Source: a bacterium (lineage in GTDB: Bacteria; Patescibacteriota; Minisyncoccia; UBA6257; WO2-44-18). Taken from it: DNA of 64,000 nucleotides. The stretch spans positions 86,666 to 150,665 of the forward strand of contig JAUYHP010000031.1 of the NCBI GenBank assembly GCA_030689595.1, written 5' to 3'. The notes beneath the pieces were generated by a model. That model was not told the origin of the DNA, searched no databases, and saw nothing but the letters and a program-made list of their open reading frames with translations. The position numbers were made by a program, and so were the translations under genes. Below, piece by piece: positions 49,803 to 53,773 of the stretch. Positions within the stretch are counted from its first letter, which is position 1. The number at the start of each line of letters is the position of its first letter.

Positions 49803-50639
49803 ATGACTATGAGCTTTATCACCTTATTGCGCCCACTGCATTGGGTTAAAAATCTATTGGTCTTTGTGCCCATCTTTTTTGCTAGAGAAATATTTATGGC
49901 AGATAGAATGATGGCGGCTTTTTATGCCTTTTTGGCGTTTTCTCTTACTGCTAGTGCCGTTTATATAATCAATGACATAGTTGATCGCCAGCATGACGCC
50001 CAGCACCCAATCAAAAGGCTACGACCAATTGCCTCGGGCGCCGTGTCGATTACACAGGCGGTGATGTTGTTGGTTATTTTGTTAGCCGGTGGAGCAATTT
50101 TGGTTTATTTTTTATCCCCTCAATTAGCAGTGATCATTGGAGCTTATTTATTGCTAAATCTTCTATACTCATTTTATTTAAAGCATTGGCCAATATTTGA
50201 TATTGTTCTGATTTCTTCATTATATCTATTGCGCGTTGTCGGTGGTGGCGTGGCTAGCCAAACGCACATATCAACCTGGTTGATTCTATGTACAGTATTT
50301 ATTAGTCTGTTTCTGATAGTTGGCAAGAGAAGGGTAGAATTTTCACAACTTCACCGTCGTAAAGTATTAGGTCTTTATAGTGGAGAGTTGCTTGATCATC
50401 TTTTTGGTATAGCGGCAGGTCTTACGATCATATCTTACGGTTTGTATACAATTTTGGGAGTTAATTCAGAGTTGGCTGTTTATTCGATATTTTTGGTCTT
50501 GATCGGTATATTTCGATATCTGCTGATAACTTATAGGTCGGCTGTAGCAGAATATCCGGAGAGAGTATTGTGGTCAGACAAAATTATTAGTGGTAGTGTG
50601 TTGGCTTGGTTAATTTTCATGTATTTTATCTTTTATTGA
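49803..50639 (+). CDS. UbiA-family polyprenyl-phosphate 5-phosphoribosyltransferase (DPPR synthase, Rv3806c-like)
   Basis: Segment-by-segment similarity to Rv3806c: [77 protein letters not shown]. 7-8 TM helices. Confidence 0.75.
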   Translation: [278 protein letters not shown]

Positions 50640-50645
50640 TTACTT

Positions 50646-51683
50646 ATGAGACATTATTTAGTAACTGGTGGCTCCGGGTTTTTGGGCATAAATATTATCA
50701 GGCACTTATTAGCCAGAGGCGAAAAGGTGCGATCTTTGGATCGGGTTGATTTTGATTATCCAGAGAAAGACAAGATAGAGATAGTGACTGGCGATATCAG
50801 GGATGTAGACATTGTCGATCGGGCAATGCGCGATATTGATATAGTGGTTCATTGCGCCGCTGCCTTGCCGTTGTATTCTAAAAAAGAGATTTTAACTACT
50901 GACATAGACGGCGCACGTAATATTTTAGCAGCTGCCAAGAAGCATGGCGCTGAAAGGATGATCCACATTTCATCCACGGCTGTATATGGCATACCCGACC
51001 ACCATCCATTATTTGAGAACGATAAATTAGACGGAGTGGGTCCTTATGGTAAGGCAAAAATAATGGCCGAAGAGATGTGTTTAGAATATCGGAAACAAGG
51101 TTTTTGCGTCCCCATATTGCGGCCGAAAAGTTTTGTAGGCCCAGAAAGATTGGGGGTCTTTGCTTTGTTCTATGATTGGGCTAAAGATGGTAAAAACTTC
51201 CCCATGATTGGTTTTGGGAATAATAGATATCAATTGTTGGACGTAGAAGATTTATGTGATGCGATTTATTTATGCGCTACCAAAGACAAGGCCATAGTTA
51301 ATGATACTTTCAATATTGGTGCTAAGGAATTTAAAACCATGAAAGAAGATTATCAAGTTGTGTTGGATAAGGCCGGCTTCGGCAAAAAGATACTTGGTTT
51401 TCCCGCTTGGCCGATGATTTTAACGTTGCGTCTTTTGGAATTCTTACATATCTCACCTTTGTATAAATGGGTTTATGAAACAGCATCTAAAGACTCTTTC
51501 GTATCTATCGATAAGGCGGAAAGGATTTTGGGCTTTACGCCACGATACTCTAACCAAGAGGCTTTGCTGCGAAATTATCAGTGGTATCTAGACAATCTAG
51601 ATAAATTTAGTGGCCAGTCTGGAGTGACACATAGAGTCCCCTGGAAACAGGGCATACTAAAGTTTTTTAAGATATTCTTTTAG
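50646..51683 (+). CDS. NAD-dependent epimerase/dehydratase (extended SDR)
   Basis: VTGGSGFLGINIIRHL Rossmann motif and the YGKAK catalytic dyad region. Confidence 0.75.
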   Translation: MRHYLVTGGSGFLGINIIRHLLARGEKVRSLDRVDFDYPEKDKIEIVTGDIRDVDIVDRAMRDIDIVVHCAAALPLYSKKEILTTDIDGARNILAAAKKHGAERMIHISSTAVYGIPDHHPLFENDKLDGVGPYGKAKIMAEEMCLEYRKQGFCVPILRPKSFVGPERLGVFALFYDWAKDGKNFPMIGFGNNRYQLLDVEDLCDAIYLCATKDKAIVNDTFNIGAKEFKTMKEDYQVVLDKAGFGKKILGFPAWPMILTLRLLEFLHISPLYKWVYETASKDSFVSIDKAERILGFTPRYSNQEALLRNYQWYLDNLDKFSGQSGVTHRVPWKQGILKFFKIFF

Positions 51684-51686
51684 AGA

Positions 51687-52160
51687 ATGCATTTGCCATT
51701 TTCAAAACTCGATTTCGGAGGCGTTAAAAATGCAATAATCTTGCTTGATATTGATGGGACTCTTGTGCCAGACGGTGGCGACGTCCCAGTCAAAGAGATC
51801 GTAGAAAAATGCCATGAGCTGGTTGAGCATAACAAAGTTTATCTACTTTCTAATAAGAAAAATCATGATCGCAATGAGGCGATCGCTGGATTATTGCACG
51901 CTACTTATATAAACACACCACGCAAAAAGCCAAGCCGGAAAGTGTTGGGTTCTTTGGACATGCAGGGGAAGTCTCTGATAGTGGTGGGCGATAAATTTTT
52001 AACTGATGGCATATTGGCCAAGAGAATCGGGGCCAGATTTATAAAAGCCAAAAGGATTGTCGATGTGAGAGATGGCTACATCAATAAGACTATGTATGCC
52101 CTAGATGATCTAATTTATCAGTTGTTCAAGTCGGTAGTATGGCGCGGGCGAAGTTCGTAG
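51687..52160 (+). CDS. HAD-superfamily phosphatase (YqeG-like, subfamily IIIA)
   Basis: ILLDIDGTLV (DxDGT motif I), LLSNK and VVGDKFLTDG motifs. Confidence 0.6.
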   Translation: MHLPFSKLDFGGVKNAIILLDIDGTLVPDGGDVPVKEIVEKCHELVEHNKVYLLSNKKNHDRNEAIAGLLHATYINTPRKKPSRKVLGSLDMQGKSLIVVGDKFLTDGILAKRIGARFIKAKRIVDVRDGYINKTMYALDDLIYQLFKSVVWRGRSS

Positions 52161-53773
52161 GGATCATAGTATTCTATCTTGTAGACGTGATTGAGCGCTC
52201 GGCCTTGTGGATTGTAAAAAACTTGCGCTTTTGACAGGTGTTGCAAGGGATTTTTTATCCCCAGCCATATTACTCGCGCATCAGTAACTACTGCTTCGGA
52301 GTCGGCTATGTATTCTATGTTTTGTTCTTGGAAAAATTTCCAGAGATTCTTTTCTTTCATGGCTTCATAGGCGGCGTTGTTAACTAGGCCATCAGAGTTC
52401 ATTACAAAACTGTGGGAGTAATAGCCTAGCACTCCGCTGTTGAAAGAGGCGATGCGAGCATCCTCTGGTAGGTTATCATTAATCCACTGAGACATCTGAT
52501 ATTTTAGAGTCTCTTTTGGTTCGTCGCGAAAGACATTCCTATAGAAGTTTGAGTCTTTGCCATCATAATAGATAGCATTGATGCCTAATATGATGATTGT
52601 GATCGCTATTAGGGTAGATATTGTTTTTCTGGGCCATTCGGTAATTTTGCACAATTTTTCTAACGAGAGCGCTAGAGCCACAGTGGCTAAGAACGGTATG
52701 CTGATAAAATACCAGGGTCGAGTAGCCCAGCGTACGCCGCCGTGGACTAGGACGAACAGGAAAAGGCCAGCCAATATTATGAATAGTGTTTTGCCGACAC
52801 TGCTCTGTCTTATCTCTAGCCATTCCTGCCGCCGAAAACGTCTTATAGCCAACCAAAGAGCAGCTAAAATACCGACTATGATAGTTATTTCCAATAATGC
52901 AAATAGTGGCGTGACATTGCTGGGGATTGGTAGGCCGACATAGGCTAGCATTCTAAATACGTTTAGTGAAAATTGATAGCCGGACCAAAGGATGATCTCT
53001 ATTATGTTGCGCGGCACTGATAAAAACCAATCGTGATTAATTAGAGTATAGGCAAGTCCGCTACCCTGAACTATGGCGCCAAATTTAAGCCAATTATATA
53101 GCAGCCAAGGCGATACTAATATCGTTGCTGGTACGCCTAGTAAGAATATCTTTTTAATCCGCTGGTCATTTTGCTTAATCGCTAAGTAGATGAATGCCAC
53201 TGCGGCGAAGAGGCCGTAATCTGTTCTAGCTAAAGTCATTAGGCCGGCTATAGCTCCTAAAGAAAAGTATAAATTCAATCGTCCCGGTTGTTCCAGCGCT
53301 TTTATGAGCAGGAGCATGAAAAGCGACAGCAGAAAGAGGGCCAGACTGCTCTCGAGACCATCAGTAATATAGCGCCAGTTGTAAAGATTAAGGGCATAAA
53401 AAAGCAACAGGCCGATGGTAAGCCATTTTTTATCCGTTATCTTCTGTAATATTTTCCAGAGTATGACAGTGCTGGCTAAGAAAAAAAGCACTTCTAGAAA
53501 GCGTAGGATGATTATTGGTAATACGGGATCGTTGGGTACCAGGTAATAAGTAGCCACAGTAATACCCATCCAGAGGGGATGGTAGCCATTAGTGGGGTTT
53601 TCACCATCGAAGGTTGATCCTAGGCCTTGAGCGATGTTCCGCCCGATCTCATAGTAGTAGTAAGAGTCATCTGGCAATCTGACAAAATTTTCGGTAGTGC
53701 TATGGTAGATATTGTAGCCTTGCCAGGCTAGTGCCAGGAAAAGGATGACGATTAGATAGCGATATTTTCTCAT
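52118..53773 (-). CDS. Large polytopic membrane protein, GT-C-like
   Basis: About 13 TM helices, a first-loop DDSYYYYEIG acidic/aromatic motif and a C-terminal soluble domain. Convergent with the UbiA-SDR-HAD genes. Confidence 0.45.
   Translation of the reverse strand: MRKYRYLIVILFLALAWQGYNIYHSTTENFVRLPDDSYYYYEIGRNIAQGLGSTFDGENPTNGYHPLWMGITVATYYLVPNDPVLPIIILRFLEVLFFLASTVILWKILQKITDKKWLTIGLLLFYALNLYNWRYITDGLESSLALFLLSLFMLLLIKALEQPGRLNLYFSLGAIAGLMTLARTDYGLFAAVAFIYLAIKQNDQRIKKIFLLGVPATILVSPWLLYNWLKFGAIVQGSGLAYTLINHDWFLSVPRNIIEIILWSGYQFSLNVFRMLAYVGLPIPSNVTPLFALLEITIIVGILAALWLAIRRFRRQEWLEIRQSSVGKTLFIILAGLFLFVLVHGGVRWATRPWYFISIPFLATVALALSLEKLCKITEWPRKTISTLIAITIIILGINAIYYDGKDSNFYRNVFRDEPKETLKYQMSQWINDNLPEDARIASFNSGVLGYYSHSFVMNSDGLVNNAAYEAMKEKNLWKFFQEQNIEYIADSEAVVTDARVIWLGIKNPLQHLSKAQVFYNPQGRALNHVYKIEYYDPYELRPRHTTDLNN

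Follow-up and report, generated by a model that had tools for sequence, protein, structure and literature searches.

What would a bacterium that probably belongs to the candidate phyla radiation (CPR) make with a homologue of the mycobacterial decaprenyl-phosphate phosphoribosyltransferase (DPPR synthase) Rv3806c, encoded next to a putative sugar epimerase, a phosphatase and a large membrane-bound glycosyltransferase? This question is raised by four genes within a 64,000-nucleotide stretch of contig JAUYHP010000031.1 (the whole stretch is called the window here, and all coordinates of its genes are counted from its first letter), which an initial annotation had read as a mycobacterial-type module for a lipid-linked pentose donor. 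On the basis of our results, the functional core of that proposal, namely a DPPR-synthase homologue, a short-chain dehydrogenase/reductase (SDR), a phosphatase and a glycosyltransferase of the GT-C fold serving a lipid-linked pentose, was supported. We put at roughly 70% the probability that the module, by its predicted activities, builds a pentofuranose on polyprenyl phosphate for use outside the cytoplasm.

All four open reading frames (ORFs) were confirmed with the positions and order first described for them: a UbiA-superfamily protein with about eight transmembrane (TM) segments at 49803-50639 (+ strand, 278 residues), a GalE-like extended SDR at 50646-51683 (+, 345 residues), a phosphatase of the haloacid dehalogenase (HAD) superfamily at 51687-52160 (+, 157 residues) and, facing them, a polytopic protein at 52118-53773 (-, 551 residues). 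Pfam and NCBIfam assigned them to UbiA, extended SDRs, HAD-IIIA/YqeG/PGP-phosphatase-type hydrolases and PMT_2 GT-C-type proteins, respectively. Between the UbiA, SDR and HAD genes there are gaps of just 6 and 3 bp; the three lie on the same strand and are part of one tight operon, being the 3' end of a co-directional run of 15 genes (35365-52160) whose gaps do not exceed 37 bp; the gene of the 551-residue protein is convergent and overlaps the 3' end of the HAD gene by 43 bp. A glycan-synthesis island of approximately 34-63 kb surrounds the module, with eight GT4 domains, three GT2 genes, WecB, an asparagine-synthase-type amidotransferase, methyltransferases, a nucleotidyltransferase and four GT-C-like membrane proteins. 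The nearest named relatives of the UbiA, SDR and GT-C proteins came from Parcubacteria, Magasanikbacteria, Gracilibacteria, Peregrinibacteria, Paceibacterota, Giovannonibacteria, Harrisonbacteria and Kaiserbacteria, and it is on such names that the probable CPR assignment is based.

The alignment with Rv3806c on which the initial annotation was built could be reproduced: the window UbiA protein matched the solved structure (PDB 8j8j) over its full length (residues 5-271, E 4.6e-39), and the three quoted sequence blocks lie inside this alignment. The second-best solved structure was chlorophyll synthase, with an E value of 7e-5. Likewise, the top three full-length NCBIfam models were all decaprenyl-phosphate phosphoribosyltransferases (213.6, 200.8 and 162.6 bits), and the next one, PRK08238 (482 residues), was matched at profile positions 195-377 only. 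Models for quinone, heme-O, chlorophyll and archaeal-lipid prenyltransferases scored at most 55 bits, which places the DPPR-synthase models about 150 bits ahead of every other prenyltransferase model. Cryo-electron microscopy of Rv3806c has identified twelve residues (R22, K28, Y70, N73, D77, K87, R90, Q135, Y138, K143, Y157 and K208) that contact Mg2+ or the ribose, 5-phosphate or pyrophosphate of phosphoribosyl pyrophosphate (PRPP), and the phosphoribose contacts among them are not conserved in ordinary UbiA enzymes (PMC10994848). We transferred these positions to the window protein through a HMMER alignment (R10, K16, Y54, N57, D61, K71, R74, N119, Y122, K127, Y141 and K187, in the same order). 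Eleven of the twelve were identical, the exception being Asn119 in place of Gln135, and ten were invariant in an alignment of 24 relatives; the NDxxDxxxD and KRxxE motifs are also present. Judged from its sequence, the protein is a homologue of Rv3806c. Since the PRPP contacts are conserved and the scores side with the DPPR-synthase models, the homology holds and a quinone or heme prenyltransferase is excluded, so both checks that had been suggested for this protein came out in favour of the DPPR-synthase assignment.

The DPPR-synthase-like UbiA subfamily is not confined to actinobacteria. When 1.84 billion representatives of clusters at 50% identity were searched exhaustively with HMMER, 1,980 clusters were found at E <= 1e-30, and at least 594 relatives were confirmed in a scan with one genome per species. 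These relatives span dozens of phyla and include Saccharibacteria, Peregrinibacteria, Beckwithbacteria, Ignavibacteria, Bacteroidota, Chloroflexota, Planctomycetota, Bacillota, Spirochaetes, Acidobacteriota and Chlamydiales. Some of them carry the NCBI label 'decaprenyl-phosphate phosphoribosyltransferase', and others are called '4-hydroxybenzoate polyprenyltransferase' in some databases. In a neighbour-joining tree without support values, the window protein fell inside a clade of ten CPR-type sequences, all of which are linked to an SDR gene. Because the other SDR-linked UbiA proteins are scattered in this tree, the well-conserved SDR must have been combined with several UbiA lineages.

The SDR has a Pfam Epimerase score of 144.7 bits and contains the motif TGGSGFLG and a Ser109/Tyr134/Lys138 triad; the GxxGxxG motif and the triad are invariant in its family. 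Its closest neighbours in both sequence and structure were generic UDP-hexose 4-epimerases and dTDP-glucose 4,6-dehydratases of the GalE/RmlB type. The AlphaFold2 (AF2) model is of moderate quality (predicted local distance difference test, pLDDT, 75.7), and structure matches were uninformative on specificity for C2 or C3. Conservation of this protein is unusual: it is 73-79% identical to relatives from CPR bacteria and to proteins annotated as Anaerolineae, Chloroflexota, Flavobacterium sp. and Spirillospora sp., the mean column identity across the family is 81%, and it is better conserved than UbiA itself. The C-terminal tail of the window protein (...HRVPWKQGILKFFKIFF) has the family form SGVSHRVPWKQGILxxxKxFF, which is found at the end of all members; an archaeal, a Streptomyces and a Rhizobium homologue share the tail and diverge towards its very end. 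Both hydrophobic and amphipathic, the tail has a helical hydrophobic moment of 0.54 against a protein mean of 0.26 (rank 20th of 333 sequence windows), and AF2 placed a helix there with low confidence. We infer a role of the tail as a membrane anchor, in keeping with a substrate that is lipid-linked. Within the proposed pathway, the evidence tips slightly towards an epimerase role for the SDR, with lipid-linked ribose as its substrate.

The stand-alone HAD protein was matched by TIGR01668 (46.9 bits) and PF09419 (21.6 bits), which places it in the YqeG/HAD-IIIA/PGP-phosphatase group, and its catalytic motifs DIDGT and GDxxxD are intact. Its gene lies two genes downstream of the UbiA gene and immediately after the SDR gene. 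The founder of the PGP-phosphatases, Gep4, dephosphorylates a lipid phosphomonoester, which fits polyprenyl-phosphate-ribose-5-phosphate as the proposed substrate of the window enzyme.

Are these genes kept together elsewhere? We called ORFs in the 80 best UbiA loci, compared them with the window proteins and considered some further loci as well. A homologue of the HAD protein was fused to the N-terminus of UbiA in L001, L005 and L088, stand-alone homologues were adjacent in L002, L006, L012, L089 and L090, and in L003 the homologous region lay inside an ORF of 515 residues; about 40 of the best 150 cluster representatives had an N-terminal extension of approximately 150 residues on UbiA. An SDR with 58-77% identity was found beside UbiA in 14 loci from CPR bacteria, Bacillota and Spirochaetes. 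Identities of 58-74% were observed next to UbiA in L001, in Saccharibacteria (L002, L003, L005 and L006), in Peregrinibacteria (L012), in a locus annotated as Bacillota (L034) and in Spirochaetes (L060 and L062), and a second Bacillota locus (L068) had a copy with 51% identity. Among close UbiA relatives (L088, L089 and L090), the gene order was again UbiA followed by SDR, with SDRs 73-77% identical; L089 carries a protein annotated as Candidatus Parcubacteria. More distant SDRs occurred near UbiA in Streptomyces sp. SAT1 (42% identity), where an EEP phosphatase and a protein with an LPG-synthase domain were also encoded, and on plasmid pRCCGE531b of Rhizobium sp. CCGE531 (34%), whose SDR1 belongs to the same family and has the same C-terminal tail. 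Counted over the 17 loci in which UbiA and SDR are linked, the SDR gene was within 0-50 bp of UbiA in 10, covering several phyla, and 15 had a protein of at least 400 residues with at least seven predicted TM segments within 6 kb. Thus, conservation of the neighbours, which had been named as a check, was observed, with SDR and HAD kept together with UbiA in related genomes.

Three of the surveyed neighbourhoods deserve mention in their own right. The first is an archaeal module (L082) on a megaplasmid of Natronococcus sp. CG52 (NZ_CP099392.1, 202422-209645), in which an SDR with 51% identity, a GT-C protein, an LPG_synthase_TM protein, a PHP-domain phosphatase, UbiA and a GT39 protein are encoded beside sulfotransferase and APS kinase genes; SDR matches of 50-53% identity were also found on megaplasmids of Halostagnicola, Haloterrigena and another Natronococcus. 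We know of no description of a dolichyl-phosphate-pentofuranose pathway in haloarchaea. Another is a cluster conserved on plasmids of rhizobia that were isolated from nodules (L081, pRCCGE531b 451293-459235; also pNGR234a and pMLa). It comprises an SDR with the tail, a second SDR without it, an SMR transporter, a GMC oxidoreductase, a polytopic protein of 658 residues and a HAD-UbiA fusion (77-83% identical across Mesorhizobium, Sinorhizobium and Rhizobium). In a second flavour of neighbourhood, UbiA lies near a DprE1-like FAD protein of 438 residues (L016, L036, L043, L054 and L061) and, in seven loci, near a classical SDR of 242 residues resembling DprE2. In L036, L054 (Chryseobacterium), L016, L043 and L061, the genes of these two proteins come after that of UbiA, which suggests that Bacteroidota and further Gram-negative lineages have a pathway of the arabinofuranose type.

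The 551-residue protein, of the PMT_2 ('GT39-like') kind, adopts, with confidence at the level of the model, a GT-C fold. The AF2 model built with 36 homologues had a pLDDT of 90.7 and a predicted TM-score (pTM) of 0.91, and all 26 Foldseek matches in the PDB at E <= 1e-3 were GT-C enzymes, including STT3/AglB/PglB, ArnT, DPY19, ALG9, ALG12 and three arabinofuranosyltransferases (AftA, AftB and AftD). The Asp-Asp pair that follows the first TM segment (D35-D36) does not vary within the family, which is what GT-C catalysis would lead one to expect. Identity to the Aft and Emb enzymes is just 12-15%. Homologues were found mainly in CPR lineages, and family members adjoin UbiA and SDR in L003, L005 and L006. 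A single conserved family of GT-C partners was considered and rejected, the large membrane proteins near UbiA and SDR being many unrelated families. Two further proteins of the window might also use the donor: a PMT_2 GT-C-like protein of 559 residues in the same operon (42539-44218, +; PF13231, 35.6 bits), which has a weak phmmer link (1.1e-9) to the Natronococcus GT39 protein encoded one gene from UbiA, and a YfhO-like polytopic protein of GT-C type with 799 residues (60154-62553, +; PF09586, 27.2 bits, just below the cut-off). The latter is related (phmmer 4.7e-12) to a YfhO gene directly downstream of UbiA in L086, where SDR, UbiA and YfhO stand in a row.

A donor made in the cytoplasm would have to be flipped before such enzymes could use it. 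SMR-like small proteins (about 120 residues, 3-4 TM segments) were encoded inside the module in 7 of the 17 linked loci, and four of them (in L002, L006, L012 and L062) proved homologous to the protein that is annotated as an SMR transporter in the Rhizobium locus. LPG_synthase_TM proteins accompany UbiA and SDR in L034, L082, L083 and L086, and no SMR-like small membrane protein was found in L034, L082 or L086. The window encodes one protein of this kind at 46409-47395 (+; PF03706, 130.5 bits; also TIGR00374), which is the only, and a weak, flippase candidate for the lipid-linked pentose in the window; at BLAST level it showed no similarity to the LPG_synthase_TM proteins encoded in those loci. 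Its partner may instead be the directly preceding GtrB/ArnC-like GT2 (45406-46398, +), which was matched by Pfam and NCBIfam families of polyprenyl-phosphate glycosyltransferases of the PgfS, ArnC and AglJ type. Together with a further PMT_2 GT-C (47370-48713, +), these genes (45406-48713, +) probably form, as far as their families indicate, a separate polyprenyl-phosphate-hexose side system inside the same operon, so that the island seems to use two polyprenyl-phosphate sugar donors.

To which known system does the module belong? In mycobacteria, decaprenyl-phosphoryl-arabinose (DPA) is made by Rv3806c, Rv3807c and DprE1/DprE2 and used by the Emb and Aft GT-C enzymes. The first enzyme of the window is homologous to that of this pathway, with a conserved active site, and the same logic would apply, in that lipid-phosphate-ribose-5-phosphate is dephosphorylated, epimerised and used by a GT-C enzyme. 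On the other hand, the window has neither a VAO-type DprE1, nor a DprE2 of the classical SDR type, nor a PAP2 phosphatase, and its product need not be arabinose. No DprE1-like or DprE2-like gene (probes from Bacteroidota loci) and no GMC-type oxidase could be detected in the whole window (tblastn, E <= 1), and no PAP2 domain was present among the island proteins, which bears out the statements of the initial annotation that DprE1 is missing and that the phosphatase is of the HAD rather than the PAP2 type. Epimerisation of the DprE1/DprE2 type was rejected for the window, there being no such genes. The label 'mycobacterial-type' was therefore wrong: DprE1, DprE2 and PAP2 are absent, and the extended SDR of 345 residues is not a relative of DprE2.

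Outside actinobacteria, group IV pilins of Pseudomonas aeruginosa are glycosylated with D-arabinofuranose (D-Araf) by a polyprenyl-phosphate 5-phosphoribosyltransferase (PPPRS), DprE1/DprE2 homologues and TfpW. There, too, a DPPR-synthase homologue feeds a periplasmic GT-C-type transferase; the Pseudomonas system differs from the window in its use of DprE1/DprE2 homologues. The GtrA/GtrB/GtrC and CsbB/YfhO systems resemble the module in that they, too, depend on a GT-C enzyme, a flippase and a sugar donor carried by a lipid phosphate, and the side system at 45406-48713 in the window operon is of this sort; their donor synthase is a GT2 acting on a UDP-sugar, whereas that of the module is a UbiA-type enzyme predicted to act on PRPP. 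The view that P. aeruginosa pilins are the only well-known use beyond actinobacteria has been overtaken, the same logic having been described for Citrobacter O antigens (PMC11127046).

Three-component pentofuranose glycosylation was reported for ORF12-ORF15 of Citrobacter youngae O1/O2 (Kelly, Duong, Nothof, Lowary and Whitfield, PNAS 2024; PMC11127046). In this system, ORF15, a HAD phosphoribose-phosphatase (PRP) domain joined to a UbiA-type PPPRS, uses PRPP to make polyprenyl-phosphate-ribofuranose, flipping is predicted to be the task of a MATE protein, and ORF12, the GT-C enzyme with which GT136 was founded, carries out the transfer in the periplasm (PMC11127046). A single GalE-like SDR, ORF13, alone decides between a ribofuranose (Ribf) side chain and its C3 epimer, xylofuranose (Xylf), and Araf-containing glycans accompany DprE1/DprE2 homologues (PMC11127046). 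The same survey described a phage locus with a separate phosphatase, SMR proteins as alternative transporters and 'elaborate' loci with several epimerases and GT-Cs, including the Rhizobium CCGE531 plasmid, and regarded the pathway logic as widespread, with many more examples predicted (PMC11127046). The window shares with Citrobacter a UbiA-type PPPRS homologue predicted to use PRPP, a phosphatase from the HAD superfamily (of a different subfamily), a single GalE-like SDR proposed to stand in for DprE1/DprE2 and a transferase of the GT-C fold with a proposed external role, all embedded in a glycan-synthesis cluster. Because of this shared component logic, the module is best filed under the kind described by Kelly et al. 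and not under the mycobacterial DprE1/DprE2/PAP2 pathway. It differs from the Citrobacter system in that its phosphatase is a stand-alone protein of the HAD-IIIA/PGP-phosphatase type and not a PRP domain fused within ORF15, its GT-C is PMT_2-like and apparently not ORF12/GT136-like, neither a MATE nor an SMR flippase is encoded, and its host is a probable CPR bacterium without outer-membrane lipopolysaccharide. The two may possibly also differ in SDR subfamily, to judge from the sequences: the window SDR has the conserved C-terminal tail, and ORF13, as seen in its primer-derived termini, apparently does not. Probes from the lambda-Red homology arms published in the Citrobacter study gave no match in E. 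coli genomes, a tblastn search of plasmids with a HAD-UbiA fusion revealed no enterobacterial locus, and the phage collection gave one unannotated 6.6-kb match only.

Several observations weigh against our interpretation. The window UbiA protein scored below the NCBIfam equivalog cut-offs (213.6 versus 234 for NF008977, 200.8 versus 207 for NF008978); as these scores are just under curated thresholds, we regard it as a divergent DPPR-synthase member. No detectable similarity was observed between the window HAD protein and PRP domains of the ORF15 type (E 0.57). The 551-residue GT-C protein showed no resemblance in sequence to the putative GT-C encoded in the Rhizobium CCGE531 locus and is apparently not a GT136 relative, to judge from the description of ORF12 (EpsG-like, against PMT_2-like for the window protein). 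An SMR-like ORF could not be found in the window (best tblastn E 0.23), and no MATE flippase was matched among its annotated ORFs. The cloning primers of ORF13 translate to an N-terminus with AHIITGGS and a C-terminus that ends in EASIHS and a stop codon, without the KxFF tail, which is a weak hint that ORF13 is of another type. Finally, linkage of SDR and UbiA is not universal. In L084 and L087 (the latter annotated as Chloroflexota), an SDR with 75% identity and the same tail had no UbiA gene within 7 kb, and either the partner genes are unlinked there or the SDR has a second role.

The last point bears on the alternative in which the donor is plain polyprenyl-phosphate-ribofuranose, with the SDR as a common nucleotide-sugar epimerase or dehydratase that works for the glycan island and not on the lipid-linked pentose. 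The island needs nucleotide sugars, both the sequence and the model of the SDR resemble UDP-hexose 4-epimerases and dTDP-glucose 4,6-dehydratases, and these two loci would be explained. We consider this unlikely, because the SDR gene hugs UbiA in more than half of the linked loci and in several phyla, its product is better conserved than UbiA, soluble nucleotide-sugar enzymes lack such an amphipathic and hydrophobic tail, and Citrobacter provides a genetic precedent for a single SDR acting on a lipid-linked pentose. Less likely again is that the SDR represents the reductive half of a DprE1/DprE2-like pair, with an unlinked FAD oxidase giving the keto intermediate. One candidate, a DAO-family FAD protein (38518-39576), is encoded in the same window operon, and a GMC-type FAD oxidoreductase stands beside an SDR of this family in the Rhizobium locus, a related one being present in L060. 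Nevertheless, the modules of the CPR loci L002, L006, L012 and L088-L090 contain no oxidase, the window has no DprE1-like or GMC-like gene, and GalE-type extended SDRs epimerise unaided. The DAO-type protein was rejected as a conserved oxidase partner, since a homologue was found near UbiA in 0 of the 80 loci.

We attach slightly less weight still to a non-epimer product, such as a lipid-linked keto-pentose, or to an SDR acting before dephosphorylation, with a sugar other than Xylf or Araf as the outcome. Related extended SDRs do include dehydratases, decarboxylases and dehydrogenases; against this, the conserved module has no partner aminotransferase or dehydratase, and epimerisation is the simplest precedent. 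As for the UbiA protein, its Pfam membership and the '4-hydroxybenzoate' labels on some relatives might suggest that it prenylates aromatic substrates in the synthesis of quinone, heme O or chlorophyll and that its neighbourhood is coincidental. This reading has a negligible chance of being correct and was ruled out by the model scores and the active-site residues described above, in particular by the Rv3806c-specific phosphoribose and pyrophosphate contacts; the context of glycan-synthesis genes also speaks against it.

A lipid-linked pentofuranose pathway in which the SDR acts as an epimerase is the reading that we prefer, and its steps would be taken in the following order. The UbiA-type enzyme, as its homology and active site suggest, would transfer ribose-5-phosphate from PRPP to polyprenyl phosphate, and the HAD-IIIA phosphatase, being adjacent to it and frequently fused with it, would strip the 5-phosphate. 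The SDR, held at the membrane by its tail, would then use bound NAD to oxidise and re-reduce one ring hydroxyl of polyprenyl-phosphate-ribofuranose. By analogy with Citrobacter ORF13 the product would be Xylf, with Araf as an alternative. After flipping, for which the LPG_synthase_TM-type protein is a candidate, the 551-residue GT-C, and perhaps the 559-residue and YfhO-like proteins, would move the pentofuranose on the outer face of the membrane onto a surface glycan or protein, the acceptor presumably being built by the surrounding GT4/GT2-rich island. Every step has an experimental precedent in Citrobacter, where PPPRS and PRP yield polyprenyl-phosphate-Ribf, a single SDR turns Ribf into Xylf and a GT-C enzyme transfers the sugar. 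A bolder proposal is that the SDR family constitutes a distinct class of single-enzyme lipid-linked ribofuranose epimerases, unlike both DprE1/DprE2 and ORF13. We advance this tentatively and regard it as doubtful. If it were true, CPR bacteria, several monoderm phyla and some archaea would have a DprE1-independent route to polyprenyl- or dolichyl-phosphate-linked D-arabinofuranose or another pentofuranose, and their envelopes would bear pentofuranose glycans that nobody has looked for.

Some other features of the window were also recorded. A type IV pilus assembly ATPase of the PilB/GspE type is encoded at 12366-14033 (+). In P. aeruginosa, pilins are the known acceptor of D-Araf; in the window, no link was found between the pentose module and either this gene or pilins. 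At 36534-38525 (+), a single ORF encodes FolD domains (tetrahydrofolate dehydrogenase/cyclohydrolase, residues 32-286) followed by a complete GT4 (residues 306-639) without an intervening stop, and translation could also begin at a GTG at residue 295. This ORF is a genuine fusion, or else a pair of genes between which the stop codon has been lost. The start of the window is probably the chromosomal replication origin, with dnaA at 4043-5587 (+) and a minimum of the cumulative GC skew at approximately 2-4 kb, followed by a steady rise. In an ORF of 1,215 residues at 29760-33407 (+), the sole recognisable domain was an N-terminal peptidoglycan-binding PG_binding_1, with no NCBIfam match. Four tRNA genes (Lys-TTT, Leu-CAA, Leu-TAG and Leu-TAA) at 10919-11359 (-) are clustered in the window's single segment of raised GC content (0.475).

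In summary, the module is a further example of a described kind of pathway, built partly from different protein families. The initial annotation had considered such a donor system in a Patescibacteria-like organism to be undescribed. This stands for the organisms, in that no description from Patescibacteria or CPR bacteria was present in the searchable open-access literature, where nothing past a commentary has followed Kelly et al.; it does not stand for the chemistry, as this kind of pathway has been known since 2024 and the subfamily is very widespread. The combination of UbiA, SDR, phosphatase and GT-C spans the boundary between bacteria and archaea. Its SDR, being unusually conserved, is a good target for studying single-enzyme epimerisation of a lipid-linked furanose, and for tuberculosis research the module offers natural DprE1-independent variants of a DPA-type pathway. 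CPR bacteria live attached to other microbes and, to our knowledge, almost nothing is known about the chemistry of their cell surface. Given a conserved operon for a donor of lipid-linked pentofuranose, CPR surface glycans or glycoproteins are predicted to contain ribo-, xylo- or arabinofuranose, and this prediction is testable in cultivated Saccharibacteria, which carry the same module.

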